Source: Clostridia bacterium
GTDB lineage: Bacteria; Bacillota; Clostridia; Oscillospirales; RGIG5299
Length of the DNA stretch: 64,000 bases
Direction: 5' to 3'
NCBI GenBank assembly: GCA_017504945.1
Contig: JAFVQJ010000013.1
Location: 14,414 to 78,413 of the forward strand
Part shown: piece after piece, positions 9,250-51,167 of the stretch
Layout: the number at the start of each line of letters is the position of its first letter
Position numbering within the stretch: position 1 is the first letter of the stretch
The notes under the pieces: generated by a model
The model's database searches: none
What the model was told of the DNA's origin: nothing
Seen by the model: the letters and a program-made list of their open reading frames with translations, nothing else
Made by a program: the position numbers and the translations under genes

Positions 9250-11379
9250 TCAGTATAATATTCTTATATATTTATGATAAAAGCGCTTCGGAGAATATTT
9301 TTCTTTTGCTTTTAACTCTCTTGTTTCATTTTGCAGCTCATCGGTAACAAGCTTGAATTCATCATCGGTAACGGTGTGATTGCTGAACCGTGCCTTTCTT
9401 GCAACGAAAAGACTTTCCGCAGAGGGAGCTTTTCCGTTTTCCTTGCATACCGTGCAGAGCTTTCTCCAACAGTACAGCAACCGTTTATTCTTATCCTTTT
9501 TCATAATTTTGCGCTTAGAAAGCGCAAAAAACGCTTTTCGGTAAACGGCAAAGCCCAAAACTACAGTCAATACCGCGGCGGCAGGAGCTATCAGATGAGC
9601 TATTGGGAGCTTTCCGTTCTTTTCTCCACCGTCCTCCGAGCTGCCTGTGCTTTGAGAAGAGTCGGACGTGTCACTGCTTTGATGTGAGCTGTTGTCCTGT
9701 GACGGCTGTTGTGAGCTGTTTTCCTGCGACGGATCAGAGCTGTCATCAGGAATTACGTGTGAGCTGTTTTGTTCGTTCTCGGGAGGTGCAGACTCGAATA
9801 TTTCGAAGCCCGGCGTCGATTCAATTATCTTCCAGCCCTCGCCCTCTACGTAATACTCTACCCACGCGTGTCTGTCGGTATCTTCGACCGAATACCATTC
9901 GTTTGGCTCGCTTTCGGCGACGTAATAGCCCGTAACAAATCTTGCCGGAATACCGTTGGCTCTTAAAAGCATTGCAGTAGCAGTTGCAAAATGCACACAG
10001 TAGCCGCGCTTGCTCTTTTCAAGAAAATATTGCGTATAATTTATATTTTTATCTTCCGGAATGTTGTTTTCCTCTCTGTACTCTTTTATCAGGTTTGGCG
10101 GATCGTTATCGTAAACGGCGCTGTTTCTCACAAAGCTTGCTATCTCCTCGGGAGAGGCTCCCTCAAGGCCGTATTTTTTCAACAGCGAAACGGTTCCGTC
10201 CTCTACATCCAAATAAGCTTTAGAGAGATATTTAACGTAACCCTCGTATTCATTTATCTTATCACAGAAATAAACGGTATATTCTGAGGCACCGCGTTCA
10301 TTATGTATATAGCAATCATAAAAATTATATGAGTCGCACGAGGTACTGTGCGGATTCAGTGCAGTAAATATCTGCGTTCTTATATCCGCCGTTTTTATCT
10401 CAAGAGTGTATTTCGGTTCAAATCCGCAATACATAGCATTTATCCACGAAAAGTTGCCATCGGGTGCTATATAATAGTCTTTTCTCCACATACCGTCATA
10501 CTGGGCATACGTTACTCCGCGAAGATAGTTTATCTTTGTGCTCGAGCGAAATTTCAGTTCCTCTTTTCCCGTAGTGTTTTCAAACGGTTGATTCAGCCTT
10601 ACCTCTTCTATTCCTTCCCATAGTTGAGGCGATTGAGCGCCGCCCTCCGTTCCGGGGTTATCATCTTTATCTAAAATGTCCTCAAGCTTTATCCTTATAT
10701 CGTCGATCCATGCGGGACGAGAATACGATATCGGGTTGTAATATACAAGCAATGCCGTAACAAGTACAGCACACGGCGTAATCAAAACAAGCGCATTTTC
10801 GTTTGCCTTTGAGGTATCAAACCGGCGAACGCGATCGGTTATCAATAAGATCAGAAAGAAAAGCGTGAATACCGTGATCCACGGCACAGGTGCCGCATTT
10901 ATAAACATAAGGCTGAAAAGCACCGAAGGCACGCAAAGCGCCGCAATTACGTAAAAGCCTTTTCTGAAGCCCTGCATCAGTGAAGCAAGCCACGCTGTCA
11001 GTCCGACGGAAAAAGCAAGAAAAATATAATGCGAATTTCCGAAAGCAATGCCCGTTATTTTAAACCCGAAAAAACGGTGCAGCTTGGTAGTCAAAAAGTA
11101 CAATATTCTTTCAAAGCCGTCGACTATGCCGGAAAGCTTCCAACACACCGCAAGAGCAAAAGCGCCGAGCATTACAGCCACAATAATTTTTCTGTGCTTC
11201 GGAAAAAGAGCGGGAACCGCACCCAAAAGAGCACAAGCTCCTGCTATGACAACAAAATAGCTGTCTACAGATATTTTTAACGTATTTGTAAAGCAAAACA
11301 ATGCACTTACAGTAAGTGCAGCAGCAATAAGCGACGGCATAATGACGTCGATAATTTTTCTTAATACCTTATTTTCCAC
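9250..11379 (-). CDS. transglutaminase-domain membrane protein (TgpA-like, with DUF4129-like tail)
   Basis: It has multiple N-terminal TM helices. The transglutaminase core has Cys (RGYCVHFATA), His (DRHAWVEYY) and a downstream acidic residue. An S/Q/D-rich linker and a late TM helix follow. Confidence 0.85.
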   Translation of the reverse strand: MENKVLRKIIDVIMPSLIAAALTVSALFCFTNTLKISVDSYFVVIAGACALLGAVPALFPKHRKIIVAVMLGAFALAVCWKLSGIVDGFERILYFLTTKLHRFFGFKITGIAFGNSHYIFLAFSVGLTAWLASLMQGFRKGFYVIAALCVPSVLFSLMFINAAPVPWITVFTLFFLILLITDRVRRFDTSKANENALVLITPCAVLVTALLVYYNPISYSRPAWIDDIRIKLEDILDKDDNPGTEGGAQSPQLWEGIEEVRLNQPFENTTGKEELKFRSSTKINYLRGVTYAQYDGMWRKDYYIAPDGNFSWINAMYCGFEPKYTLEIKTADIRTQIFTALNPHSTSCDSYNFYDCYIHNERGASEYTVYFCDKINEYEGYVKYLSKAYLDVEDGTVSLLKKYGLEGASPEEIASFVRNSAVYDNDPPNLIKEYREENNIPEDKNINYTQYFLEKSKRGYCVHFATATAMLLRANGIPARFVTGYYVAESEPNEWYSVEDTDRHAWVEYYVEGEGWKIIESTPGFEIFESAPPENEQNSSHVIPDDSSDPSQENSSQQPSQDNSSHQSSDTSDSSQSTGSSEDGGEKNGKLPIAHLIAPAAAVLTVVLGFAVYRKAFFALSKRKIMKKDKNKRLLYCWRKLCTVCKENGKAPSAESLFVARKARFSNHTVTDDEFKLVTDELQNETRELKAKEKYSPKRFYHKYIRILY

Positions 11380-12328
11380 AGCGCACCTCCTTTTTCGGAG
11401 TTATGCGATAATACAAATCGGCAGCCTCGGTTACCGCCTGCACGTTTGCGTCAGTCGACGCGGTGAGCAACACTGTACGGAGCGCTTTTAAAAAATCCGA
11501 GCCGTTGGAAATATCCGCTATCCTTCTTTTTAGCTTTTCCGAATCCGTATATACAATTTCAATCTCCGCACCGTGCCCGAAAAGCTCGTCAGACAGCCAA
11601 ATGAGCTGCCCTAACACCGAATCGTTTTCGTCTTCGTTTTTTGAAAAGACGGGTTCGATTACCGCTTTCATCTTCAAAGGCTCCAATGCTTCCTTTGCAA
11701 CCAGACCGTCAGTCTTGGCTGACGCCTTCCAATGTATCATACGGAGGCTGTCGCCCTCGCGATAGTCGCGCAGATCGTATTCCTCCGCAACTCCGCCTCG
11801 CTTTGCAACTCTGTTTGCGGCATACGCCTTATTCAGATTCGGCATTTTGTCGGGATGACACGGCGACGCTTCAACGAGCATCTCAACCGTCGGACATTTT
11901 TTTATTTTAAAGCAAAAAAGTCCGAGCAGATCGTAGGATCTGCTTCCCGCAAGATCGCATACTGTTATTCCGCAATGCTCTGTAGATATTTTAATCTCCT
12001 CTGCAGTATCTGAGAGAATAAATCGCCTTATATTTTCCGTCTTTCCGTAAGGAAACAGCTTCTTTTTGACGTTTATTACGCAGTACGACATCGTCCCCTT
12101 ATTTTTTACGGTTATCTTAAGCGGTACCTCTTCTCCTGCCGCACAGGACGCAGGCATCATTGCGACTATTTTCGTATTTTTTGTCCCAATCATATAAAGA
12201 AGCAAGGAAAACCACGGCAGGCACAAAACGAGCAGCAGTAAAAAGCCCGAATACCAGCCGTAATAAAAAATATTGAAAACGGCAGCCGCAACTAATGCGA
12301 CGCAATAAAAAATTCTGTTTTTGATCAT
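11369..12328 (-). CDS. DUF58 domain protein
   Basis: It has the DLRDYREGDSLRMIHWKASAK signature and two N-terminal TM helices. It overlaps the downstream gene by 11 nt. Confidence 0.8.
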   Translation of the reverse strand: MIKNRIFYCVALVAAAVFNIFYYGWYSGFLLLLVLCLPWFSLLLYMIGTKNTKIVAMMPASCAAGEEVPLKITVKNKGTMSYCVINVKKKLFPYGKTENIRRFILSDTAEEIKISTEHCGITVCDLAGSRSYDLLGLFCFKIKKCPTVEMLVEASPCHPDKMPNLNKAYAANRVAKRGGVAEEYDLRDYREGDSLRMIHWKASAKTDGLVAKEALEPLKMKAVIEPVFSKNEDENDSVLGQLIWLSDELFGHGAEIEIVYTDSEKLKRRIADISNGSDFLKALRTVLLTASTDANVQAVTEAADLYYRITPKKEVRCGK

Positions 12329-12329
12329 A

Positions 12330-13259
12330 TTATTTCAGCTTCGGAGCAACTGTTTTTGTAATTATCTCATCAAGTATATCGGTTACCGAAACGCCGTTTG
12401 CCTCCGCCTCGGGAGTAAGTAAGATTCGGTGCGCCACGGTTTTTACAAAGCATGCCTCTACGTCCTCGGGAATTACAAAATCCCTTCCCTCAATAAAGGC
12501 GGTTGCCTTTGCCATTGCCGCAAGAGCTATCGTTCCTCTCGGGCTCACTCCTCTTAAAATGCTTTTATGATTTCTCGTCGCGGTAACGAGCGCTACGGCA
12601 TAGTCGACCGTTTCGGGAGAAATATATACCTTTTCCGCCTGACGTCGAATTTCTCTTACCTCTGTTGCCGATAAAACGTTTTGCACCTCGGTGTCGGATT
12701 TGCCCGCCATACGGCTCAACACTATCTCTCTTTCGTCCTCTGTTTCGGGATATCCTATTGAAAGCCTTACCATAAAGCGATCCATCTGGCTGTCGGGCAA
12801 CAGCTGAGTTCCTACCGCACCGACGGGATTCTGCGTTGCTATTACAAAAAAGGGCTCGTCAAGTAAATATGTTTTTCCGTCAACGGTAACCTGTTTCTCC
12901 TCCATTGCCTCAAGCAGAGCCGACTGAGTGCGCGAAGTAGCTCTGTTTATCTCGTCTGCAAGAAAAACGTTTGCAAATACTGCTCCCTTTATGTATTCCG
13001 CAGTATTTTTATCTCTGTTATATATAGAGTATCCGACTATATCGGACGGAAGCACGTCAGGCGTAAATTGAACTCTGCTGTAAGAAAGACCCATAGCCTT
13101 TGCAAAGGCAACCGCCATAGTGGTCTTGCCCACGCCGGGAATATCCTCAAGCAGAATATGACCGCCGGCAATTATCGCCGTAAGAATATCGCGTATTACC
13201 TCATCCTTGCCGACTATTGCCTTTTTTACCTCATTGATGACATTATCCGAATAATTCAT
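12330..13259 (-). CDS. MoxR-family AAA+ ATPase
   Basis: Walker A is EDIPGVGKT and Walker B is LADEINRA, with a MoxR-like C-terminus. The start at MNYSDN is preceded by a GGAGGG RBS. Confidence 0.9.
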   Translation of the reverse strand: MNYSDNVINEVKKAIVGKDEVIRDILTAIIAGGHILLEDIPGVGKTTMAVAFAKAMGLSYSRVQFTPDVLPSDIVGYSIYNRDKNTAEYIKGAVFANVFLADEINRATSRTQSALLEAMEEKQVTVDGKTYLLDEPFFVIATQNPVGAVGTQLLPDSQMDRFMVRLSIGYPETEDEREIVLSRMAGKSDTEVQNVLSATEVREIRRQAEKVYISPETVDYAVALVTATRNHKSILRGVSPRGTIALAAMAKATAFIEGRDFVIPEDVEACFVKTVAHRILLTPEAEANGVSVTDILDEIITKTVAPKLK

Positions 13260-33733: not shown

Positions 33734-34197
33734 AAAAACACCTCTTTGATCGTTCTACGTTTTTATGATAACACATAAATTATCGTTTGTCAATAACTTT
33801 TTATCATTTTTCACTATTTTATTGGCTCTATTAAACTTTATAGTTGGTGTGAATAAATCGCCAAAATATTGAATATTTGCGGTATTTTTATGCATATTTT
33901 CCTTCAATATGCGATAAATAGTATAAATATTCTCATAAAATTTTTAAAAAATTTTTTATTATAGCAGATTGGCTACAACATTGTTTATACAATTGTTTCA
34001 ATGTTCACTCCCAAAAGCATTTATCGAAATGACGTTGGGTTATGCGTTGCCGGATATAATCACTCAAAGAAAACAGATGAAGAGGTAGATTTAAAAAGCA
34101 TTTGTAACGTTAAACTTGTGAAAACTCGAAAAAATATCGTTTTATAAAGTGATTTAACCCAAAACTGAGGCATACCTCATTCAAATCGATGGTAATA

Positions 34198-34227
34198 TCT
34201 GCTAAAATTTTGTAAAATTTTAGCAGA
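34198..34227. promoter_or_regulatory. perfect 14-bp inverted repeat (candidate operator or hairpin) abutting the RBS of the HTH gene
   Basis: TCTGCTAAAATTTT-GT-AAAATTTTAGCAGA, ending 14 nt before the GTG start. Confidence 0.5.
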
Positions 34228-34241
34228 AGAGGTCGATTTAC

Positions 34242-34505
34242 GTGAGAAAACTGTCGAAAGAAATCTTGAAGGAATGGTTCAATAATCAGCTTATACAAGC
34301 AAGAGCCGAAAATAATTTTACGCAACTGCAAATGTCCGAGCTATTGTTAATGGATGAAAGGTCTTATATTGATTTGGAGCACGGCAAAACCGGATGCAGC
34401 GCATTAACCTTGGTTTTGTTTATCATTTATTTTGTTAAAGACAAAAATGAATTCTTTGATACGCTGAAAAATGAGCTCAAAAAGATAAATGAAGACGTTG
34501 CATAA
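34242..34505 (+). CDS. XRE-like helix-turn-helix protein
   Basis: 87 aa with a GTG start and a GAGG RBS. The HTH-like segment is FTQLQMSELLLMDERSYIDLEHGKT. Confidence 0.55.
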   Translation: MRKLSKEILKEWFNNQLIQARAENNFTQLQMSELLLMDERSYIDLEHGKTGCSALTLVLFIIYFVKDKNEFFDTLKNELKKINEDVA

Positions 34506-34689
34506 TACCAAAAGATCTTTACGGGAAGAAATTGAGTTCAGGATTTCTAAGCCGGTGACGGAAAGCGTTTGCTTTGTTAACGGTTACAGATACGCCGTTT
34601 GCCCGAAATGCAAAAGCACGCTTGAACGGGAATACTTAAATTATTGCGACCGTTGCGGGCAGGCGTTAGATTGGAGAAAATATAAATAA
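34489..34689 (+). CDS. small zinc-ribbon protein
   Basis: 66 aa with CPKC..(13)..CDRC. It overlaps the HTH gene by 17 nt and has no clear SD. Confidence 0.4.
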   Translation: MKTLHNTKRSLREEIEFRISKPVTESVCFVNGYRYAVCPKCKSTLEREYLNYCDRCGQALDWRKYK

Positions 34690-34746
34690 AAAATTAGCTC
34701 GAATTGCACTGCTTTCAAGAAGAAAAAATTAGCTTTACAGCACAAA

Positions 34747-34786
34747 AGAAAGAGCCTTGCTTTTTAGCAGGGCTCTTATCTTTTAA
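34747..34786. terminator. bidirectional intrinsic terminator
   Basis: 10-bp stem AGAGCCTTGC/GCAGGGCTCT between convergent genes. Confidence 0.7.
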
Positions 34787-35514
34787 TTTGCGGTGGAGGC
34801 ATTTAATTGAATATATTCTTTTCTTTTCAGTAAAACCTTTTCTATAAATTTCGGGTAAATATCGGTAACTGCAAGCAATAGGTTTGTTCCAGAAGCTGAT
34901 AATACAGCTATCAAAAGATACTGCTTATTCAAAGCAAGATTCATTGAAGGAGTTTGATCGGCCAAAAAGATTCCATAAAGTACAAAGTACAAAACAGTTA
35001 ATGCAATTACGGGAAGAATGGGAAGTAAAATATAATATCCAAGTTTTTTCACTGTTGCTTGCACTGTGGTTATAATAGTTGTTTTTCCAAAAAGGCGATT
35101 ATCTATTTGCCACAAGATAAATACAGGCAATGTAACCGACAATGCAAAAATAAATATTTGTAGCGGAACAAACACTATTCCTTCGCTCATTTTTGAAACT
35201 AAACTGCAAATTAAACCTAACATAGAGAGAAGCAAAGAATCTCTTATTATAACTAAATACTGTATTTTTTGTTTTAATACATTTTTGCAGTATAAATAAA
35301 ACAGTACAAAATATCCGGCAAAAGTTCCAAAAAACGGAAGTAAAGAACTTTCATAGTTAAAAAGAAAAGTTGCTATTTGCTTGAAGAAAAGCGGCGCACC
35401 GTTTTCATCGTCAACTATACCGTATACCAAATTTCTCAAAGGAATAGTAATAAAATATACTGACAACAGTACTAATGCATTAACTACCATTGAAATTTTA
35501 ATTATCTTTTTCAT
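34783..35514 (-). CDS. polytopic (about 7 TM) membrane protein, candidate immunity protein for the orphan Rhs toxin
   Basis: An AAGGAG RBS lies in the 17-nt gap after the orphan toxin stop. The gene is strongly hydrophobic and AT-rich. Confidence 0.55.
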   Translation of the reverse strand: MKKIIKISMVVNALVLLSVYFITIPLRNLVYGIVDDENGAPLFFKQIATFLFNYESSLLPFFGTFAGYFVLFYLYCKNVLKQKIQYLVIIRDSLLLSMLGLICSLVSKMSEGIVFVPLQIFIFALSVTLPVFILWQIDNRLFGKTTIITTVQATVKKLGYYILLPILPVIALTVLYFVLYGIFLADQTPSMNLALNKQYLLIAVLSASGTNLLLAVTDIYPKFIEKVLLKRKEYIQLNASTAN

Positions 35515-35531
35515 ATTTTACTCCTTATAAA

Positions 35532-36737
35532 TCAATAAAAGGTTTGGGTTTGAACTGGTCCATAGTATCTATGACTATATTGATAGCTTCCGTACATTTG
35601 GTCAAATACTGTAATAGCTCGCTTCTTTTTATAATATGTAGTAACCATTCTATATGACATACTTTTAATTATTGCTATATCTATATTCCCGTCTATCCCT
35701 CTAATTGAATTTTCTATATATCTATTTGTGGGTTTATAAGAGCCAATACCAGTTATAAGAACGTCTATATAAAATGAGATATTGGGAATATATGATCCTA
35801 ATAGAAGCTCTGCGCATGCTTTAAAAGGTTCTATTGCAAGGGAATTAGCGAAGTTATTTACAAAAGAAACAAAATCGTTTGCTGCTTTATATGTTTTATC
35901 AAGATAATTTCTCCATTTTTTTGCTGACATTACCTGAGTTTTTATAACAACTTCAACCCCGGCTTGAGTGCCATAGAATAATCCATTTTTTATTCTGTCA
36001 CATCCTATGTAAGCAAGATTAAGATATCCAGATTCATCATAATACATATGGCTAAAATAAAGATCATACTGTTTTAAAACCTGTGGCATTTGAAGCGGAT
36101 CTGCAATAACAAAGCTATTAGATGGTGAATAAAAATAAGTTGTACCTTGTGGATCGAAGTATACTATCGGATTATTCCCACAATATGTAAACAAATTAAA
36201 TCCTAATAAATCATCGTTAATTTGTTCGTCCTCATTAATCCACCTACCCACCTCAGGATCATAATACCTGCTGATGCAGTAATAAAATCCCGTATCGGTG
36301 TCGTAGTAATAGCCTCTGTAGCGTAAGGGATTTATAGTTCCTAAAGTAGAAGCCATAGAGCCGGTGGTAGAAAGTAGTTTACCCCAGCTATCATAGCTGT
36401 ATTCAACTACAACTGCGCCGGTGTTATCAATAATAGCTATAATATCTCCTTGTAAATTTAATACGTAGAAATATTCAACTCCATTATAGCTAATTGAAAG
36501 AGGCGCACCGTTTTCATCATAACGGAAGAAAAGCTCGTTTGTTATTACGTTATTGTTTTCAGTATACTGATGAACTATCTTACCGTTATCGTAGGTATAA
36601 CGGGTAATTCCAAAGCTATCTTGCTTTGAAACTCTTAAACCACTATCATCGTAACTATACTGCACCAAAACACCGTTTTTAGCGGTAGAAATTAGCCTTC
36701 TGCCTTCCCACGTCATAGTTCTTCCCATATAATTCAA
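35532..36737 (-). CDS. orphan Rhs C-terminal cassette (Rhs core tail + divergent toxin domain), no canonical start
   Basis: The first ~177 aa of the homologous frame (starting ITYDAIGNPL, ~29 nt upstream of 36737) are about 90% identical to residues near the end of the main Rhs core. The NNPIVYFDPQG core-end motif is followed by a unique 203-aa tail. The frame is open to about 36775 without an ATG or SD. Confidence 0.8.
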   Translation of the reverse strand: MNYMGRTMTWEGRRLISTAKNGVLVQYSYDDSGLRVSKQDSFGITRYTYDNGKIVHQYTENNNVITNELFFRYDENGAPLSISYNGVEYFYVLNLQGDIIAIIDNTGAVVVEYSYDSWGKLLSTTGSMASTLGTINPLRYRGYYYDTDTGFYYCISRYYDPEVGRWINEDEQINDDLLGFNLFTYCGNNPIVYFDPQGTTYFYSPSNSFVIADPLQMPQVLKQYDLYFSHMYYDESGYLNLAYIGCDRIKNGLFYGTQAGVEVVIKTQVMSAKKWRNYLDKTYKAANDFVSFVNNFANSLAIEPFKACAELLLGSYIPNISFYIDVLITGIGSYKPTNRYIENSIRGIDGNIDIAIIKSMSYRMVTTYYKKKRAITVFDQMYGSYQYSHRYYGPVQTQTFY

Positions 36738-36766
36738 GGGATTTCCTATTGCATCGTAGGTTATAG
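36242..36766 (-). repeat. direct repeat copy A (orphan) of the Rhs core 3' region
   Basis: It aligns with 38000-38522. I counted 17 amino-acid differences in 177 aligned codons by hand. Confidence 0.85.
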
Positions 36767-36861
36767 CTTTACATAATTATTTTACCATAATATTCTCCAA
36801 CATTCAACAAATTTTGAAAAATTTGTAAAAATATATAATGAGTAAAATTTCAAAAAAGGAA

Positions 36862-36905
36862 CAAAAACCCCGAAATTCGTAATGAGTTTCGGGGGGTTTT
36901 TGTTT
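36862..36905. terminator. bidirectional intrinsic terminator after the Rhs-immunity operon
   Basis: CCCCGAAA/TTTCGGGG stem flanked by A and T runs, 43 nt downstream of the immunity gene stop. Confidence 0.75.
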
Positions 36906-36947
36906 AAGCTAGGATTAATTCTTTTTAGTTATAGTACTTGTACCACA

Positions 36948-37316
36948 TCAACTCATCAAGTAAGTTTTAATAAAATCAACATATAAATCAACCAGTTTTA
37001 TAAATTGTTCACGTGATATTGAGTATGAGTTGTGTGGCAATAAATATATCTCCTTTAACAATTGTGAAAATTTCTTTTCCTCCCAATTTAAATTATCAAT
37101 TACAACATTATTATAACTCGTTTTTACTAACGTTTTTGTGTTTTCCCTTATTGTAAGGTCCAAAAACTCATTATAACAATCAAAATGTATGGATATGAGA
37201 AAATCATTTTTTCGAAATTGTAGTGCATAAAAGGTACTATTCTCAATAATGTTGCTATAAGAATAACCCATTTTAATTAAAAAAAGAAATTTGTGTTTAA
37301 TTATTTTTATATTCAC
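36948..37316 (-). CDS. candidate cognate immunity protein of the main Rhs toxin
   Basis: 122 aa, very AT-rich and apparently cytoplasmic. The GTG start is preceded by a GAGGGA RBS that directly follows the Rhs stop codon. Confidence 0.6.
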   Translation of the reverse strand: MNIKIIKHKFLFLIKMGYSYSNIIENSTFYALQFRKNDFLISIHFDCYNEFLDLTIRENTKTLVKTSYNNVVIDNLNWEEKKFSQLLKEIYLLPHNSYSISREQFIKLVDLYVDFIKTYLMS

Positions 37317-37326
37317 GCTAATTCCC

Positions 37327-40300
37327 TCAAAACATCTTCACATAATTGAAATAGCCATTTACTACTTGCCGTTCCATTGCATACCATCTACTGGTAATAT
37401 TAGCACCTACCGAGCCAGTATCATAGATAGGGGCGCCAAGTTTTGTCATTCTATTAATAAACGCTTTATTATGCATAAGACTGAGGTCATCCGCGAGTTG
37501 TTCCCCAATTTTAGGAATTTTTTTAATTAAGTTATATCCTTTCATTGGTTTATATGTTGTCGCATCAACAACTTGTGCCGCTTTTCCGACGCGGCTCATA
37601 TCTTCTCCTATTGCAATACCTTGTTTGGCGGTTTTAACAGCTTTAACTGCACCAATTGATGAAGAAGCAAATGCACCTATGCCACCCCACATAAATCCAT
37701 CGCAGGCCCCGTCTATCATTCCTTGGACACCACCAGTTATATATCCTGTGACAGCACCAGACAATGTGCTGGCCGCTACGCCAATCAATAATGGTGCAAC
37801 TGCACCACCAGTTGCAACTGTAATAGCAACTGCTGCAACCGTAGCCACAGCACCTATTGTAACTTTTAGCCAATTGGGCATAGACCAGTTGCCATTAGTG
37901 TCAAAACGATTAACAGGATTATTCATACAATATGCGAACATATTATATCCCTGTATTGAATCACCAACACCAGCAATTATACTATCTACATTTATAAACC
38001 TACCCACCTCGGGATCATAATATCTGCTGTTGCAATAATAGAATCCCGTATCGGTGTCGTAGTAATAGCCTCTGTAACGCAATGGGTTTACTACGCCTAA
38101 AGTGGTTGCCATTGTGCCTGTGGTAGCAATCAATTTACCCCAGCTATCGTAGGAATACTCAACTACAACGGCGCCGGTATTATCAATAATACCAATAATA
38201 TCGCCCTGTAAGTTTAATACATAGAAATATTCTACGCCATTATAGCTTACAGAAAGAGGCGCGCCGTTTTCATCATAGCGGAAGAAAAGCTCATTGCTTA
38301 TTACGTTATTGTTTTCGGTGTACTGATGAACAATTCTACCGTTATCATAAGTATAACGTGTTATACCGTTGGAATCTTGCTTGGAAAGTCTTAAACCACT
38401 ATCATCGTAACTATACTGTATTAATGCGCCATTCTTGGTGGTGGAAATTAACCTTCTGCCTTCCCACGTCATAGTTCTTCCCATATAATTTAAGGGATTT
38501 CCTATTGCATCGTAGGTTATAGTCTGTCCGTTATACGAGGTAAGAAGATCTTTCCAATCGTTGTTGGAATAACCGTAATTTTTTACACTTACAGCAGTTC
38601 CGAGAGTTTCCGCGGTTGTATAAGCATACTCACTCTTTGAAAGAATATTTCCTCCGGCATCGTAGGTGTAGGTTATGGTCTTGCTTATAAAGCCGTTATT
38701 CTCTCTTATGAGTTGACCTAACGAATCGTACACGTAGCTTACGGTGCTTGTGCCGTCGCTTATCGAGGTTATATTGCCGTTGTAATCATAGGTATAGCTG
38801 AAATTCTTAAACTGTGTGCCGGGAAGATTGATTCTGAAATTAGAAACTATACCCGATTGGAGCAGAGTATCGCCCACGATCTTCGAACGGTAGGTAAAGA
38901 GGTATTCAAGCAGTGTTACCGCGTTTTCGCCCGTTTGCTTTATAAGTGTTTTACCCGAATTTCTTCCAATTGCATCGGCGCTTGAATGGGCAAGGTAAGT
39001 TCTTTCGTTATCGCCTTCACCCTCTACGAATTTCACGGTAACGGTGCCGTCGCCGTTTTCGCCGTCCTCATAGGTGTATTCGGTTTCCTTTACGGTTCCG
39101 TTAATAACACGAGTCTGCTTTATAAGGCGGTTTTCGCTGTCGAAGGTCTGGGTAACATTGTAGCTGTAGCCCGTTCCCGAAATGGAGCTTACCTTCATTG
39201 CGGCAAGGTCGCCGTCGTAGTTATAATAATAGTTTGTCTTTAAGTTGTTACCGTTGTCTACCGTTTCAATAAGTCTGCCGAGGCTGTCGTAGGTAAATTC
39301 ATAGCGAGCATCGGTGGCATCATTTACGAAGATGGCGGTTACATTATCGTTTTCCACACCGCCTGCTACGTTGGTATCTTGGTTTGCATACTCGTAGCTT
39401 ACTTTGTAGCCGTTTCCGTAAACGGCATTATCTAAAACGCCGTTATGTAAGATATCCTTGTAGTTGTTAGTAACGAGGACTGTGCCGCCAACGGATACTT
39501 CGGTGGTCTGACCGTATTTATTGTAGTCAAAGCCGTATTCCACGCCGTTTAAGCTGGTGATCTTCGAAAGTCTGCCTTCAGTATCATACTCATAATTAAC
39601 CGAATCGTTGCCTGCAGTAATAGAGGTTACTCTGTGGTTTGAATCGTAGCTGTAGCTTACGGTATTCCCTTCATTATCTGTAGCAGAGGTAAGAAGTCCC
39701 GTTGAGAGATCGTAGTTATATGCCGTATGGGATTCCTGCAGCTCGTCGAATACCTTTGTGAGATAGTTACCGTTTGCGGTGTATTCGTTTAGTGTTTCGG
39801 TATAGTAAACAGTATCGCCCTTGGTGTGAGTCGTGCGGGAAAGCAGGGTGTTGCCGTAAGCGTCACGCGATACGGTGTTGGTCTCGGTGGTAACCGAATC
39901 GGCAGATACTCTTATTCCCGTTGTGTCGCCGTCAGACTTGGTTATATTTATTGTCTGAGTTTTTTCGGTGCCGTCTGCCTTTTTAACGGTGCGGGTAACG
40001 GAGGTCACTTCGCCGTCTTCGTTATAGGTGTAGCTGTAGGTCTCGTCGTCGAAGGTGGTCTGCTCGCTAATATAGCCCGCCGAGTTGTAGGTGTAGATCG
40101 TTCCCGCCTTTTCCTTGAATGCCTGAATGCCGTCGAAATATGCGGTGTTGCTGTTATAGTTATAGCAGAGGTAAATATCTATTGAGGTGTAGTTATTCTG
40201 TGCGGTTACGGTGCCGTAAACGTATTGCCAATCGTTTACGTAGGAGTTGAAGGACACGTAGCCTGCGGTTTTATCCGCGTCGTTCTCGGCATCGTTGAAA

Positions 40301-43300
40301 ACCACGAGGATTCCGAATCTAAGAGGAGTGTTTTCGGATACGGGAAGGGAGCTTGCTTTCGCCCAGCCGGAGAAGGTGATGGTATCGCCTGCGTTGCCCG
40401 AGCCGGAGATGGTCTGGGAGGCATACTTTTCGGCATCGACCTGTCCCGTTATTTTGAGGGCGTTTGCATCTCTGTAGTCGGAGGTGTTATCCGAGTCTGA
40501 TGCGACCGTTAACGCGGTGCCTGTCCAATTAGTTATGCCGTTATTGAAGTCGCCGTTTGAGATTATATTATCTCTTTGCGAGGCGTTATCTCCTATAGTT
40601 ACCTGGAGATCGTCAAAATATGCAATACCTTTAGCGCCGCTTGCTCCGAGATAAAGCTTTAACGTTTCGGTGCCGGTTGAGCTTGCGCCGTACTCTGCGG
40701 TTACCTTTACGCGTGTCCATTCACCCAAGGAGACTTCCTCGGATTTGGTTTTTACTATTTTATTTGCCATTTCAACGGCGATATATGCATTTACGTCGGT
40801 TGCCGCCGTTTTTATCCACGCGGAGAAGGTTATTACGGTTGCCTTATTGGCAGGGACGGTGAGATTGTAATTTGCTTCGAGAGTTGTATTATCAGTGCCC
40901 CTGGTAATCATAAAGCCGTACATGCCACTGCGGCCGCCTGCGCTTCTCATTCCGTAGTCTACCACTCCGAGTGAGGAAGAAAAAGAAACGGTTCCTTTCT
41001 CAAAGCTCGGGTCGGCTAAGAGATTTATTGTCTGGTTCTGCGGACGGGAGGATAAGGTCAGCTTATTTATACTGCCCTCGCCGTATTCTCTGCCGTAATC
41101 ATAGAAATAGCCGTTGCCGTTCTCATCTGAGGACGAGATAAGGTTTCCTCTTGAATCGAAATTCATATAGGAAATGTTGCCCTTTGAATCGGTCAACTTT
41201 GTTCTGTAGGTGGCATACTCGAAAGTTAAGGTTTCGTCTGCTTCGCTTTGCTGGTTTCCGCTGTAATAGGAAACTGTTTCAACTTTATTGTTGCTACAGG
41301 TAAATACGTATCTGTCACCCGTATCCTTGTCAATAAATGTGGTCGTTCCATTCGTAAATGAAGTATAGCTCGAAATTGCCGATTCGCTGTTACCGTTAGG
41401 TCCCACCGCAGTAAGAGGCATATTCACCGCATTAAAAGTATATGCGGTTTTCGAAATATAACCTTCTGTAGTATTAGTAATGAGCGTGTGATCAGCTACG
41501 GTATTACCGAAATACCGTATTTCCGTAAAATACAACACTGCACCGCTGTTATAGATGAATTTGTATATACGTCCCGCACCGTCTATTATGCAGTCAATAA
41601 CGTAGCCGGTGGTGTTTTTGTAATATATCTGAATTTTGTTATCCGAAACAGTAACACCTGTGCCTGCAAGTGTATTTTCGGAGTTTTTATCCGTTATTGC
41701 AACAAGTCTGCCCGAGGCATCGGTGTCGAACATATAACGCAGTCCCGAGTCGGAATGATAGCAATAATGTGTCTTGCCGTTATAGGTTACCGTTTCAAAA
41801 TATTCGCTCGGCCACGCTTCCGCTTCGTATATTCCACTTTCATTTTCGGTTATTCTTGTGGAGTATTTATCCGGTACGTAAATTCCTTTTGTAACGTCTC
41901 CGACCTTATATTGCTGCAACACGAAATACCTTTTGCTGTGTGTGCCATCGATATATTCAATATAATTTTCGCTACCTATGGTCTTAAGGGTAATATGCTG
42001 ATGGTAGTTTGTTTTTACAAACATACCGATATTGTAGGTCATCCAGCCGATATTGTTACCAAAAACCATATTTATTGAAACCGGCAAAATGTTTCCGTCA
42101 TAGCCTATATCATTTCTTATTACGGTAAGACTTCCGGAAAACGGATTTATATATGCCGTTCCCGCAGAGCCCATATCCACGGTATAGCTCGGATTATCCG
42201 TAAGTCCGCTTACGTTTCTGTATGCAAAGTAAATGCAAGGACGGCGGTTTTCGGTGCCGTATTCCGCAGATCTGAAGGTTGCATAATTGCCGGACTCTTC
42301 GGTGCGGTATTTGAGCATAAAGCCAAGGTTATTGTCTTCCGATTCATACCATTTGTTTACGAGGGTAGTTACGTCGAAATAGTAATATTCCGGCGCAGTC
42401 ATTTCACAGCTGTCGATTACTGCTGTTTCATAATCCGGTTTATTGTTCCAGTTTATACTGTTATACGTAAAGGTCGATTTGATATTGTGAAGCTCGGCAT
42501 ATCCGCTTCCGTTATAGTTTGTGCGCCAGATCTTGAGCTCTGCTTTTATAAGCACGTCGCCTGCGGCAAGGGTGGGCAGATAATCCTGGTTGAACTTCAT
42601 ATAGGTTCTGTTTATGCCGCGACCCTCACAGCCCATTCTTAAGAAGTTCTGATTCCAATAATTTAAGGTAGGATAGCCCGAGGCAACGGTAACGTCCTGC
42701 ATTACGTCGCTTCCCGTTCCGCCGGTTACGGTGGGATCTACGGTTACGGGATATACTCGGTCATCGGAAGAAAGCCATTCGTATGCCGGCGTGTAGGTGA
42801 GTATGTATTTGTTTTTCGAGGAAGTGGGAGATAACGTTACGGAGATATCGTCGGAATACTCTCCGTTTGCATCCTCCATAAAGGGCGCGTAGATCGTAAA
42901 GAAAACTTCGCCCGTGCTTCTGTCCGAGAAGGTAAGGCTTCCGTCGTCGTAAAGAGTGGCGACCAAGCCGTGAGTGTTTATCTCATAGGAATAGCCCGTT
43001 TCCCTTTCGGGCATTTTGTTAAGTATTATCTCTTCCTTTAGCTCATTGCTCTTTATGGTATACGCTATATCCGTATCCTTGAAGGTGTTTTTGTAATTGA
43101 GCTTGGAATATATCTTACTGCTTACGTCGGTCTTATCCGTGCTGCGAGATGCTTTAGAGGCTATTTTGCCCTCTGCGGCATTGGCGTTTAAGAGCTTGAA
43201 GGTAAGCTTTGCATTATTTTTTGATACGGATATTTCAGAACCGTTGTTTAGCTGATTGGGCAGCTCTACCGAGAAAGAGTTATCTTTATTCTTAAAGGTA

Positions 43301-43656
43301 TTTGTCTTTTCATCGGCAACAACGGAGTTATCTATTTCCTTCCAGCTTCCGTTTTCGAGATAATGCACCGCCTCGGGATACATTACGGCGATCATTATTC
43401 CTTCCTCGGTATTAAAATGCTTTACCGATTCTTCACGGAGTGAAATATCTTCATCTGTTATAGTAAGATCTTCAAAATCTATATTTTCGTAATCCAGGTA
43501 GGTGTTTACAACGTTTTGCTTTTTTGAAGAATTATTAGCTTTTTCGGAAGTTTCAAAGGTTATTCCTGCTTGCGCAAAGCCCTGTATTGCAAGCGTTACG
43601 AACAAGGTAACGCTGATGAGCAGTGCACAGGATTTCTTTAGTAACCTGATAAACAT
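37327..43656 (-). CDS. Rhs/YD-repeat polymorphic toxin, WapA-like (Sec signal peptide)
   Basis: 2109 aa with a signal peptide ending AQA. A DNRLRE-like N-domain and two CBM4_9-like jelly-roll modules (NGDFNNGITNW .. AYFDGIQ) come first. Dozens of YD repeats follow. The Rhs core tail is PLRYRGYYYDTDTGFYYCNSRYYDPEVGRF .. NPVNRFDTNG, and a 185-aa C-terminal domain ends the protein. Confidence 0.95.
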   Translation of the reverse strand: MFIRLLKKSCALLISVTLFVTLAIQGFAQAGITFETSEKANNSSKKQNVVNTYLDYENIDFEDLTITDEDISLREESVKHFNTEEGIMIAVMYPEAVHYLENGSWKEIDNSVVADEKTNTFKNKDNSFSVELPNQLNNGSEISVSKNNAKLTFKLLNANAAEGKIASKASRSTDKTDVSSKIYSKLNYKNTFKDTDIAYTIKSNELKEEIILNKMPERETGYSYEINTHGLVATLYDDGSLTFSDRSTGEVFFTIYAPFMEDANGEYSDDISVTLSPTSSKNKYILTYTPAYEWLSSDDRVYPVTVDPTVTGGTGSDVMQDVTVASGYPTLNYWNQNFLRMGCEGRGINRTYMKFNQDYLPTLAAGDVLIKAELKIWRTNYNGSGYAELHNIKSTFTYNSINWNNKPDYETAVIDSCEMTAPEYYYFDVTTLVNKWYESEDNNLGFMLKYRTEESGNYATFRSAEYGTENRRPCIYFAYRNVSGLTDNPSYTVDMGSAGTAYINPFSGSLTVIRNDIGYDGNILPVSINMVFGNNIGWMTYNIGMFVKTNYHQHITLKTIGSENYIEYIDGTHSKRYFVLQQYKVGDVTKGIYVPDKYSTRITENESGIYEAEAWPSEYFETVTYNGKTHYCYHSDSGLRYMFDTDASGRLVAITDKNSENTLAGTGVTVSDNKIQIYYKNTTGYVIDCIIDGAGRIYKFIYNSGAVLYFTEIRYFGNTVADHTLITNTTEGYISKTAYTFNAVNMPLTAVGPNGNSESAISSYTSFTNGTTTFIDKDTGDRYVFTCSNNKVETVSYYSGNQQSEADETLTFEYATYRTKLTDSKGNISYMNFDSRGNLISSSDENGNGYFYDYGREYGEGSINKLTLSSRPQNQTINLLADPSFEKGTVSFSSSLGVVDYGMRSAGGRSGMYGFMITRGTDNTTLEANYNLTVPANKATVITFSAWIKTAATDVNAYIAVEMANKIVKTKSEEVSLGEWTRVKVTAEYGASSTGTETLKLYLGASGAKGIAYFDDLQVTIGDNASQRDNIISNGDFNNGITNWTGTALTVASDSDNTSDYRDANALKITGQVDAEKYASQTISGSGNAGDTITFSGWAKASSLPVSENTPLRFGILVVFNDAENDADKTAGYVSFNSYVNDWQYVYGTVTAQNNYTSIDIYLCYNYNSNTAYFDGIQAFKEKAGTIYTYNSAGYISEQTTFDDETYSYTYNEDGEVTSVTRTVKKADGTEKTQTINITKSDGDTTGIRVSADSVTTETNTVSRDAYGNTLLSRTTHTKGDTVYYTETLNEYTANGNYLTKVFDELQESHTAYNYDLSTGLLTSATDNEGNTVSYSYDSNHRVTSITAGNDSVNYEYDTEGRLSKITSLNGVEYGFDYNKYGQTTEVSVGGTVLVTNNYKDILHNGVLDNAVYGNGYKVSYEYANQDTNVAGGVENDNVTAIFVNDATDARYEFTYDSLGRLIETVDNGNNLKTNYYYNYDGDLAAMKVSSISGTGYSYNVTQTFDSENRLIKQTRVINGTVKETEYTYEDGENGDGTVTVKFVEGEGDNERTYLAHSSADAIGRNSGKTLIKQTGENAVTLLEYLFTYRSKIVGDTLLQSGIVSNFRINLPGTQFKNFSYTYDYNGNITSISDGTSTVSYVYDSLGQLIRENNGFISKTITYTYDAGGNILSKSEYAYTTAETLGTAVSVKNYGYSNNDWKDLLTSYNGQTITYDAIGNPLNYMGRTMTWEGRRLISTTKNGALIQYSYDDSGLRLSKQDSNGITRYTYDNGRIVHQYTENNNVISNELFFRYDENGAPLSVSYNGVEYFYVLNLQGDIIGIIDNTGAVVVEYSYDSWGKLIATTGTMATTLGVVNPLRYRGYYYDTDTGFYYCNSRYYDPEVGRFINVDSIIAGVGDSIQGYNMFAYCMNNPVNRFDTNGNWSMPNWLKVTIGAVATVAAVAITVATGGAVAPLLIGVAASTLSGAVTGYITGGVQGMIDGACDGFMWGGIGAFASSSIGAVKAVKTAKQGIAIGEDMSRVGKAAQVVDATTYKPMKGYNLIKKIPKIGEQLADDLSLMHNKAFINRMTKLGAPIYDTGSVGANITSRWYAMERQVVNGYFNYVKMF
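38000..38522 (-). repeat. direct repeat copy B (inside the main Rhs gene)
   Basis: Partner of 36242-36766. Confidence 0.85.
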
Positions 43657-44070: not shown

Positions 44071-44100
44071 ATTATACTATACCGCACTCGGTTTTGTCAA
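44071..44100 (-). promoter_or_regulatory. sigma-A promoter P2 (minus strand)
   Basis: TTGACA (44100-44095), 18-nt spacer, TATAAT (44076-44071). Confidence 0.65.
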
Positions 44101-48755: not shown

Positions 48756-51167
48756 ATGGCAAAAGCCAAAAAAACAAGCAAGAAAAAGAACAACGTAAAA
48801 AGCAAAGCGGCGGAGGCTCCCAAAAAGAATTGGGGCTCGCAGATACTCGGCATTTCCCTCTTTTTCCTCGCGGTTGCATTCGTTATCGCGCTGTTTTTCA
48901 ATATCGGCGCGGCAGGCGCGTGGATAAAATCGGTGCTTTTGGGACTGTTTGGATTTTCCGCCTATCTCCTTCCGATAATCATGGTGGTGAGCGGCGTTTA
49001 CGCGGTATTTCCCAAAACGTCGCGCAGAGCAATAAAGCTCGTTTGCGGCGCAATTATGTTCGTTGCTCTTTGTTCCGTCTTTGCTCTTTTTTCAAGGGAC
49101 GGCATCGATGCCTCAAGCGTTACCTCGCTTCTTACCACCCTCTACACCACCTCTAACGAAACGCTCCTTTCGGGCGGCGTTATAGGCGGATTATTGGGAT
49201 ATCCGCTCTCGAGCGGCATAGGCGTCGTGCTTTCGGCGCTTATATTCGCTTTCGTCTTTGTGGTTTCGCTCGTCCTCTACTTCGATATATCGGTTGCCGC
49301 TATAATTTCGAAGATATGGGATAAAATAAAGGCAAAAAGGGCGGCGAAAAAGGAAGCGGCAAAGGAGACTTCTCAAGCGCAGGCAGAGGAAAAGCCCAAA
49401 AAGAAGAATATGCCCTTTGACGAGAGTACCGTCAATATCGATATCCCCATCGACGACGAGCCCGAGAAAAAGCCGCTCTTTAAAAAGAAAAAGAGAAGCG
49501 CTATCGACATTCCTCTCTCGGATGAGGAAAGACCTCCCTTCGAGCCCGACGGCTTTGATATAAGCGATAATTCTCGCGTTGCTCCCGAGGATACGGAGCG
49601 CGTTACCGTTACCGCCGAGGAGAAGGCGGAGATGATAAAGGAGATAGAGGCAAAGGCAAAGCTTGAAAAGCCCGCCGAAAAGCCCTACCGCTTTCCTCCC
49701 ATCACCCTTCTTACCAAGGGCAACGCCGATAATACCGACGCCACCGCAGAAATGCGCCAGATGGCCGACAAAATAGTTTCAACTCTTGCCTCGTTTGGCG
49801 TTGAAACGAGAATAACCAACGTTTCGAGAGGTCCCTCGATAACGAGATTCGAGCTCGTTCCCGGTATGGGCGTTAAGATAAGCAAGATAGCAAACCTTTC
49901 AAACGACCTTGCTCTCGCGCTTGCCGCAAGCCGTGTAAGAATAGAGGCTCCCATTCCGGGCAAGGCGGCTATCGGCATCGAGGTACCCAACAAGAGCAAG
50001 ACCACCGTTTATATGAGAGAGATACTCTCAAGCCGTGAATTCTCGGAGTCAAAGAGCTTTGTTACCGCGGCGCTCGGCAAGGATATCGGCGGAAGCTCGG
50101 TGGTTATGGATATTGCAAAAATGCCCCACCTTCTCATTGCGGGTGCCACCGGCTCGGGTAAATCGGTCTGCATTAACGCAATTATCGTTTCGCTTATCTA
50201 CAAGGCTTCGCCCGATAAGGTAAAGCTTATTATGATAGATCCCAAAATGGTCGAGCTTTCCGATTACAACGGTATTCCCCACCTTATGATACCCGTTGTT
50301 ACCGATCCCAAAAAGGCGGCGGGCGCTCTTTGCTGGGCAGTTGCCGAAATGCAAAAGCGCTATCAGCTTTTTGCCGATAATTCGGTAAGAGAGATATTCT
50401 CCTATAACGCTCTTGCCGAGACCGACCCCGATTTAGAGCCGCTTCCCCAGATAGTTATAGTTATCGACGAGCTTAACGACCTTATGATGACCGCTCCCAA
50501 GGAGGTCGAGGATTCTATCTGCCGTCTTGCACAGAAGGCAAGAGCCGCAGGTATGTATCTTATCGTTGCTACACAGCGTCCCTCGGCAGACGTTATCACA
50601 GGTCTTATCAAAACGAATATTCCCTCGCGTATTGCCTTTGCGGTTGCAAGCCGAATAGATTCAGGCATCATTCTCGATCAGACGGGCGCCGAAAAGCTTA
50701 TAGGTCAGGGCGATATGCTCTATCACCCCATGGGCTCCGACAAATGCATAAGAGCGCAGGGCTGCTTTATTCCCGATAAGGACATTGCCGCAGTTATCTC
50801 CTTTATTAAGGAAAACGGCACTGCCAACTACGACGACAGCGTTATGCGCGAGATAGAAAAGCAGGTCGAGGAGCGCGAAAAGGGCAAGGGCGACAAGGGC
50901 GGCAGCTCTTCGGGCGATTCCGACCCGATGATAGAGGAAGCTATCGAAATAGCGATCGACGCGCGCACCGTTTCCACCTCGATGCTTCAGCGCCGCTTAA
51001 AGCTCGGCTACGGCAGAGCCGCAAGAATAATCGACGAGATGGAGGAGCGCGGTATAGTAGGTCCTCCCGAGGGCTCGAAGCCCCGTCAGGTGCTTCTCAC
51101 CAAGGCGGAATGGGCAGAGATCCAGATGCGTCAGGCAGACATTGCCGAAATGAATGAAAAAGTTTAA
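48756..51167 (+). CDS. ftsK: DNA translocase FtsK/SpoIIIE
   Basis: It has N-terminal TM helices and a charged linker. Walker A is GATGSGKS and Walker B is [10 protein letters not shown]-terminal gamma winged helix is present ([17 protein letters not shown]). Confidence 0.9.

Follow-up and report, generated by a model that had tools for sequence, protein, structure and literature searches.

A reused glycine-rich hydrophobic module and a putative toxin family without a library name at the C-terminus of a WapA-like Rhs protein from a Clostridia bacterium

Which part of an Rhs C-terminal region (CT) is the toxin, when that region opens with a long hydrophobic stretch and closes with a globular domain of unrecognised family? 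The question is raised by a 2109-amino-acid (aa) Rhs/YD-repeat protein encoded in the window analysed here, a 64,000-nucleotide (nt) stretch of contig JAFVQJ010000013.1 from the gut-type genome of a Clostridia bacterium. A preliminary description of this DNA had left two readings of the hydrophobic stretch side by side, as a transmembrane pre-toxin module of the PT-TG type or as the membrane-inserting toxin itself. The evidence presented below favours a conserved modular pre-toxin element that is neither toxin nor PT-TG, and the last ~100 aa define, as judged from sequence comparison, a putative toxin family without a name in Pfam, NCBIfam, PADLOC or the PDB. The features that carry this reading are given below in window positions; CT residues 1-185 are the last 185 aa of the Rhs protein, which map to 37330-37884, followed by the TGA stop codon at 37327-37329.

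37327..43656, minus strand: Rhs/YD-repeat polymorphic toxin gene, 2109 aa (open reading frame (ORF) and translation, Pfam, NCBIfam).
37891..38151, minus strand: Rhs-associated core domain (TIGR03696), ending in ...YCMNNPVNRFDTNG (NCBIfam; also the point at which a downstream orphan cassette diverges).
37663..37884, minus strand: hydrophobic Gly-rich pre-toxin module, CT residues 1-74 (translation, alignment, loci, hydropathy).
37621..37662, minus strand: basic helical linker (SSIGAVKAVKTAKQ) leading from the module to the toxin domain (helix in both AlphaFold 2 (AF2) models).
37330..37620, minus strand: putative C-terminal toxin domain of an unannotated family with a small alpha/beta fold, CT residues 89-185 (profile search, alignment, AF2).
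37323..37328, minus strand: GAGGGA ribosome-binding site of the immunity gene (read directly; overlaps the Rhs TGA and lies 6 nt ahead of the GTG).
36948..37316, minus strand: putative cognate immunity gene, 122 aa, GTG start, 24.4% guanine plus cytosine (GC) (ORF, homologues, co-variation).

The Rhs protein, which is identical to MBR2327549.1 ('DNRLRE domain-containing protein [Clostridia bacterium]', from a Clostridia metagenome-assembled genome), begins with a Sec-type signal peptide (MFIRLLKKSCALLISVTLFVTLAIQGFAQA) as read from the translation, and continues through a DNRLRE domain (residues 320-473) into RHS/YD shell repeats (Pfam RHS_repeat in 6 stretches, E=6e-26; NCBIfam YD_repeat_2x, E=5e-23) and a YDPEVGRF...FDTNG motif region. 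The Rhs_assc_core model TIGR03696 covers residues 1836-1922 (E=2.4e-19) and stops at the G of NNPVNRFDTNG, in agreement with the earlier placement of the core end at NPVNRFDTNG; by what is known of Rhs proteins, this would be the site of autoproteolysis and the demarcation point of the CT. The earlier reading of the CT as ~75 Gly/Ala/Val/Thr-rich residues followed by a globular part is also borne out by the translation, in which the hydrophobic string, KQGIAIGEDMSRVG, GAPIYDTGS and YFNYVKMF are all present. YD repeats, a core followed by a variable CT and a co-varying immunity gene were all found, and on these sequence features the protein is placed among the WapA-like Rhs polymorphic toxins.

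That the hydrophobic stretch is a unit in its own right is indicated by what follows it in other proteins. Of the 53 relatives found with the 185-aa CT as the query, several match over the first ~75 residues only and then run into other domains, including TNT (PF14021; proteins P0029 and P0041), DGHHT-containing (P0025, P0042) and HHVIEK-containing (P0032) domains and others. A locus scan with the module alignment as the query and one genome per species recovered the module (LPNWAK..TGGA.AP..DGFMWGGI) in 44 loci from Clostridia, Bacilli/Erysipelotrichaceae, Mollicutes and one bin labelled Alistipes, beginning a few residues past the Rhs core-end motif (YC.NNP....D..G) in 36 of them. The sequences behind the module form 10 CT clusters that are unrelated by BLAST, four of which are named by Pfam: Tox-REase-7, PT-HINT (plus a further toxin), TNT and Ntox30. 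Modules 68-84% identical to that of the window precede all four of these and several unnamed domains. The substrates of REase-fold nucleases, and those of the TNT NADase, are cytoplasmic. A protein search with the module profile was less informative, returning 12 short fragments only, with low-complexity candidates dominating, and no description of the module was found in the literature searched.

Two observations on these loci stand apart. The module-bearing Rhs locus binned as Alistipes (Bacteroidota), on the 361-kb contig CAYWPN010000001.1 (locus L015), may reflect either a binning error or horizontal transfer. The commonest CT type behind the module (GGTL.KFGK...D.GTK..LH.H; loci L023, L030, L032, L033, L035, L038, L039, L042, L045 and L047) is without a Pfam name and has a Gly-rich hydrophobic tail of its own (P.G..I.G.IGG), and appears to be another uncharacterised toxin family.

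Within the module, the motif SMPNWLK is followed by a first predicted transmembrane segment (VTIGAVATVAAVAITVAT), a GGAVAP turn, a second such segment (LLIGVAASTLSGAVTGYI) and an amphipathic Gly-rich segment (TGGVQGMIDGACDGFMWGGIGAFASS). Gly, Ala and Ser make up 47% of CT residues 6-80, and 19-residue hydropathy windows reach 1.8-2.1 at the peak. Ten homologous modules could be aligned with a mean column identity of 84%, and 33 positions are invariant, 12 of them glycines (PN..K, TGGA..P, DGFMWGGI). The earlier suggestion of a pre-toxin element is thus upheld by the reuse of the module before unrelated CTs, but the PT-TG label is not: Pfam PT-TG (PF14449) gave no match at E<=1 to the whole Rhs protein or to the 185-aa CT, and published work presents PT-TG as a linker, probably disordered, rather than as a membrane-spanning module (PMC13483458). 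One stretch of the module, GYITGGVQGMIDGACDG (37699-37764, minus strand; CT residues 41-62), resembles the influenza HA2 fusion peptide, the sequence of which we take to be GFIEGGWTGMIDGWYG. The Pfam Hemagglutinin match (E=0.005) scores 15.8 bits, under the cut-off of 31.8, and a search of PDB sequences with the CT gave many HA2 chains at E 0.15-1.3; the likeness is probably convergent or compositional, as of one Gly-rich membrane-active sequence to another.

The 122-aa ORF was proposed earlier as an exchangeable immunity gene with a GAGGGA ribosome-binding site directly after the Rhs stop codon and a base composition far more AT-rich than that of the Rhs body, and the immunity role is supported, the site and the composition confirmed: the site overlaps the TGA, and GC content falls from 43.9% in the Rhs body, 48.6% in the hydrophobic segment and 38.1% in the terminal domain to 24.4% in the ORF. 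Seven homologues at 68-100% identity keep the N-terminus as read from the GTG, and distant homologues (28% identity, E=2e-9) lie directly after toxin homologues in loci L001 and L002; on this evidence we conclude that the ORF is genuine. In a second toxin subfamily, the immunity proteins are remote relatives of the 122-aa protein (hhalign E=5.5e-5, probability 66%). By eye, the 122-aa protein has no signal peptide and no transmembrane segment, and Pfam gave no match to the immunity proteins. Directly after the orphan toxin/immunity pair of this family in locus L002 (Clostridium sp. UBA701), positions 9386-12609 hold two group II intron reverse-transcriptase genes (RVT_1 plus GIIM) and a transposase.

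Across 41 loci (the window and 40 module-bearing loci), all 36 pairs with a common immunity cluster also have a common CT cluster, and no immunity cluster crosses CT clusters. Because immunity tracks the CT domain and the immunity protein carries no export signal, the activity to be neutralised would appear to sit in the terminal domain and to be blocked in the cytoplasm. The same tracking argues against the hydrophobic segment being itself the toxin, and it is because the same module precedes unrelated CT domains, while immunity co-varies only with those domains, that we read the hydrophobic part as a modular pre-toxin element.

The terminal domain belongs to a sizeable family. A toxin-domain profile searched against 1.84 billion representatives (clusters at 50% identity) matched 253 proteins at E<=1e-3, of which 83 also pass E<=1e-10, with Rhs and PT-HINT proteins among the carriers. 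Where the match reaches the end of the profile, it stops within 5 residues of the protein C-terminus in 126 of 165 domains and within ~25 in all 165. The preliminary description had seen no nuclease, deaminase, ADP-ribosyltransferase or peptidase motif and had called the family unrecognised, and both statements held: the CT matches no such family in Pfam, NCBIfam or PDB sequences; no Pfam toxin family matches the window protein or any of the 146 toxin-family members scanned; NCBIfam and PADLOC gave nothing consistent on 67 members, only scattered single matches; and profile searches of PDB sequences with two toxin-domain alignments were empty. The near-invariant residues are I92, G93, A103, Y111, N139, I153, D155, G157, Y168, E171 and Y178 (N139 at 37468-37470, D155 at 37420-37422, E171 at 37372-37374). 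The set is one of carboxylate, Asn and Tyr; no His, Cys, Ser, Lys or Arg is invariant.

The toxin family, too, occurs with varied partners. In a 92-member set found with the toxin domain alone, and hence unbiased by the module, hydropathy of at least 1.6 in a 19-residue window occurs within 100 aa upstream of the toxin domain in 70 members; among control windows taken further upstream the figure is 2 of 183. A module of the window type is present in only 24 of the 92; the remainder have other Gly-rich hydrophobic stretches, a few of which match Pfam Gly-zipper families. At the level of sequence, modularity runs both ways, the module occurring with many toxins and the toxin family with several hydrophobic segments.

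The AlphaFold check proposed earlier gave a confident model of the domain from a 67-sequence alignment (mean predicted local distance difference test (pLDDT) score 95.9, predicted template-modelling (TM) score 0.86), with the order beta-alpha-beta-alpha-alpha-beta-alpha-beta. In this model, G93, Y111 and D155/G157 lie at or just past the ends of strands 1-3, N139 lies in a long helix, and Y168/E171 lie in the helix after strand 3.

These observations suggest a scheme in which the Clostridia bacterium would export a WapA-like Rhs toxin through Sec, with the CT as its exchangeable tip. The Rhs aspartyl protease would cut near G1922, and the ~19-kDa CT would be kept inside the YD shell as in solved Rhs proteins; in solved Rhs/Tc proteins, autoproteolysis leaves the core end inside the shell (PMC10684867). 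The module would form a Gly/Ala/Thr-rich helical hairpin with an amphipathic glycine-rich helix, and on contact the hairpin would insert into a Gram-positive neighbour's cytoplasmic membrane and bring the attached domain to the cytoplasmic side, either alone or with a target membrane protein. Precedents for parts of this scheme are the Tde1 glycine zipper, which is required for translocation (PMC10240207), and the Rhs shell of Tse5, which encloses a hydrophobic CT and delivers it to membranes (PMC10684867). The ~100-aa alpha/beta domain would be the toxic enzyme, with a pocket formed by G93, Y111, N139, D155/G157 and Y168/E171, and would hydrolyse its substrate by means of D155, E171, N139 and the tyrosines. 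In the producer, the 122-aa cytosolic protein, predicted to be translationally coupled to the Rhs stop codon, would bind and block the toxin domain. We give this overall scheme of a cytoplasm-acting enzyme, membrane carriage by the module and cytosolic cognate immunity a probability of roughly 0.55. A first guess at the chemistry, prompted by the carboxylate/Asn/Tyr set without His, Cys, Ser, Lys or Arg, is hydrolysis of a glycosidic or phosphodiester bond in a nucleotide, NAD(P) or nucleic acid; this is a weak guess, and we consider a nucleotide- or NAD-directed activity rather doubtful. The bolder proposal, that the module is a self-sufficient translocation device serving many enzymes without an injection machine and that the ~100-aa domain has a fold and chemistry absent from solved structures, seems to us less likely than not.

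Several results weigh against the scheme. Foldseek found no significant neighbour of the domain model (best E=0.44 in the PDB and 0.16 in BFVD, all TM-scores <0.5), and the full 185-aa CT model gave no PDB match below E=0.1; with no structural neighbour, the enzymatic nature of the domain is argued from context and from the pattern of conservation. In the 185-aa model, confidence is low over the transmembrane part, with a pLDDT of 48-68. The small-xxx-small spacing remarked on earlier is present, with 18 pairs, but composition-preserving shuffles give 15.2 +/- 2.2 (P=0.14); the spacing follows from the composition of the module, GxxxG enrichment was dropped as functional evidence, and the functional signal in the module appears to be its conservation. 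In relatives with a self-cleaving PT-HINT domain between the module and the terminal toxin (L008, L026, L029, L048 and L049), the toxin could be freed without the module. Finally, in a Sec-exported producer protein a hydrophobic hairpin could act as a stop-transfer element.

This last point has its own fuller form, in which the hairpin acts in the producer as a stop-transfer segment or anchor during Sec export, tethering the Rhs shell or keeping the toxin cytoplasmic with its immunity protein until contact. The signal peptide implies Sec export, the hydropathy of the module is over the usual transmembrane threshold, and no cell-wall anchor domain was found in the Rhs protein with Pfam or NCBIfam, all of which would fit. 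The module, however, comes after the Rhs core end, a region that the shell encloses following autoproteolysis (PMC10684867) and where any anchor would be cut off from that shell; moreover, orphan cassettes carry the module with each toxin, as would be expected of payload rather than of carrier, and we regard an anchoring role as very unlikely. Only slightly better placed is the proposal that the Gly-rich segment is itself a depolarising pore-former, like Tse5-CT, EsxX and TspA, with the last ~100 aa as an accessory for targeting, oligomerisation or immunity docking. The Rhs toxin Tse5-CT and the LXG toxin EsxX are indeed membrane toxins of a glycine-zipper or hydrophobic kind, the N-terminus of Tde1 permeabilises membranes on its own, and the likeness to the HA2 fusion peptide, below the family cut-off as it is, points the same way, as do the Pfam Gly-zipper matches upstream of the toxin domain in some relatives. 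What makes this improbable is that near-identical modules stand ahead of the bona fide enzymatic toxins TNT and Tox-REase-7, that the immunity proteins of module-sharing loci are soluble, differ from one another and follow the C-terminal domain only, and that this domain has enzyme-like invariant polar residues and also occurs behind other, unrelated hydrophobic segments. The earlier alternative of a membrane-inserting toxin is accordingly disfavoured, although the module may have such an effect as a side activity, and an assignment of the module to the glycine-zipper pore-formers (Tse5-CT, EsxX, TspA, CdzC/D), in which the hydrophobic region is the toxic entity and immunity, often a membrane protein, acts against it, was rejected on its apparent association with differing soluble immunity proteins and enzymatic toxins.

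Closer to a pre-toxin element that carries its domain across the membrane is the possibility that the module is a cytoplasm-entry domain of the CdiA-CT type, docking on a specific integral membrane protein of the target that would set the host range. The logic is CdiA-like, with the module at the N-terminus of the released CT and common to unrelated toxins, and its conserved non-hydrophobic motifs (PNWAK, DGFMWGG) exceed the needs of a generic membrane anchor. To our knowledge, however, CdiA-CT entry domains are not hydrophobic hairpins, and several sequence-unrelated hydrophobic segments serve this toxin family, a pattern that speaks more for a physicochemical role than for recognition of a receptor; docking of this kind seems to us unlikely, even though the need for a receptor in Gram-positive toxin import is an open question (PMC13460014). 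For the toxin domain, the alternative is a divergent Rossmann-like nucleotide-processing protein (nucleoside 2-deoxyribosyltransferase (NDT), LOG/SLOG or TIR) that kills by hydrolysing NAD(P)+ or nucleotides. The alpha/beta topology with conserved residues at strand C-termini would suit it, as would the invariant Tyr/Asp/Glu/Asn set, which we take to resemble NDT active sites, and the TNT NADase behind the same module in relatives. The guess of nucleotide processing also draws on recurring Foldseek matches to NDT, BcmB CMP N-glycosidase, TIR, DprA, SLOG and DUF2493, but these are all non-significant (E 0.2-6, TM-scores 0.2-0.4; the best of NDT/SLOG/TIR type have E of about 1 and TM-scores of 0.3-0.4) and are equalled or outscored by unrelated alpha/beta enzymes; nor is there a profile match to NDT/SLOG/TIR-type families in Pfam, NCBIfam, PADLOC or the PDB. 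Filing the domain under NDT, SLOG or TIR was rejected on these grounds, and we think such a membership hardly probable.

The surroundings of the rhs-immunity pair contain four further features.

44071..44100, minus strand: candidate promoter, a perfect sigma-70-type TTGACA-18-TATAAT ~415 nt upstream of the Rhs ATG (pattern match only).
36868..36894, no strand assigned: GC-rich hairpin with T-runs on both strands, a likely terminator of the rhs-immunity operon (sequence).
35532..36770, minus strand: orphan Rhs cassette directly downstream of the rhs-immunity pair (alignment to the main Rhs gene).
34783..35514, minus strand: 243-aa ORF, mostly hydrophobic (translation read by eye; no Pfam match).

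The orphan cassette was missed in the preliminary description. Its positions 36144-36770 encode 209 aa of Rhs core end, which fall inside an alignment with the main gene of 212 aa at 82% identity; at the DNA level, identity is 84% over 36233-36532 against 37989-38288. The two copies match up to NNP..FD..G and are unrelated beyond it; the orphan CT, of ~200 aa, is without the hydrophobic module and without a Pfam match. To judge by position and hydrophobicity, the 243-aa ORF probably encodes the immunity protein of the orphan toxin, in this case one embedded in the membrane. Cassettes of this type, a core end with a CT, are the usual substrate for CT replacement by recombination. The stretch 33750-37320, which holds the immunity gene, the orphan cassette and small helix-turn-helix genes, has 24-33% GC, except for the orphan Rhs-core segment (36140-36770) at 37%, against a window average of 46%, and is consistent with a horizontally exchanged island. 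No component of type VII secretion (T7SS) or another dedicated secretion system was found among the neighbouring ORFs scanned, and the sole FtsK/SpoIIIE-family protein among them (48756-51167) carries both the alpha and the gamma domain typical of chromosomal FtsK; export of the Rhs protein is therefore taken to be Sec-dependent.

How Gram-positive protein toxins cross the target's cytoplasmic membrane is an acknowledged open question (PMC13460014), as is membrane crossing by Rhs-encapsulated toxins in general (PMC10684867). A short conserved module at the start of the released fragment, common to ~10 toxin types, is a testable candidate for this step, and its position and range of partners make it a candidate for the missing translocation step and a potential portable delivery tag. 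If this proves true, Sec-secreted Rhs toxins of Gram-positive gut bacteria could pass nucleases, NADases and the present domain into their neighbours without an injection machine. The 253-cluster toxin family, with its matching immunity family and a confident fold without known relative, is a good target in the search for new toxic activity. What appears to be new here is a widespread Gram-positive Rhs pre-toxin membrane module and a C-terminal toxin family with its immunity family, both without description in the libraries and literature searched.

Among known systems, Pfam PT-TG (PF14449) shares with the module a place between trafficking region and toxin in Firmicutes polymorphic toxins, but PT-TG is described as a linker, probably disordered, with a conserved Gly/Asp/Arg loop and the module a predicted hydrophobic hairpin. 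CdiA-CT entry domains are likewise N-terminal in a released CT, exchangeable among toxins and presumed to decide how the cytoplasmic membrane is crossed; they have no sequence similarity to the module, and are generally soluble and dependent on a receptor protein. Effector regions of type VI secretion (T6SS), such as the Tde1 N-terminus (PMC10240207) and the transmembrane domains of Tse6/prePAAR, resemble the module in being short, Gly-rich, hydrophobic and modular, in being fused to a cytoplasm-acting enzyme, and in their proposed role in membrane crossing. These regions, without sequence relation to the module, are N-terminal parts of Gram-negative T6SS cargo that need adaptors or chaperones, whereas the module belongs to a Sec-exported Gram-positive protein, in which it separates the Rhs core end from the toxin.

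Tse5 (RhsP1) of Pseudomonas aeruginosa (PMC10684867) is also an Rhs protein; hydrophobic segments that insert into membranes are part of its released CT, and it demonstrates that cargo of this kind can be carried by a YD shell. The toxin of Tse5 is the hydrophobic CT itself, whereas here a separate conserved globular domain follows and is tracked by a soluble immunity protein. The closest parallel is with the WapA-type Sec-dependent Rhs toxins of Bacillus subtilis and Streptococcus suis (PMC12704120), which share the signal peptide, YD repeats, core-end motif, variable CT and adjacent immunity gene, as well as the downstream orphan CT/immunity cassette with a common core end. The differences are that the CT here opens with a conserved Gly-rich hydrophobic module, not found described for WapA toxins in the literature searched, that its toxin domain is in no named family, and that a DNRLRE domain stands in the N-terminal part in place of known wall-binding domains. 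Overall, the window holds a genuine Rhs toxin-immunity locus, familiar in kind, which fits the polymorphic-toxin paradigm without departing from it.

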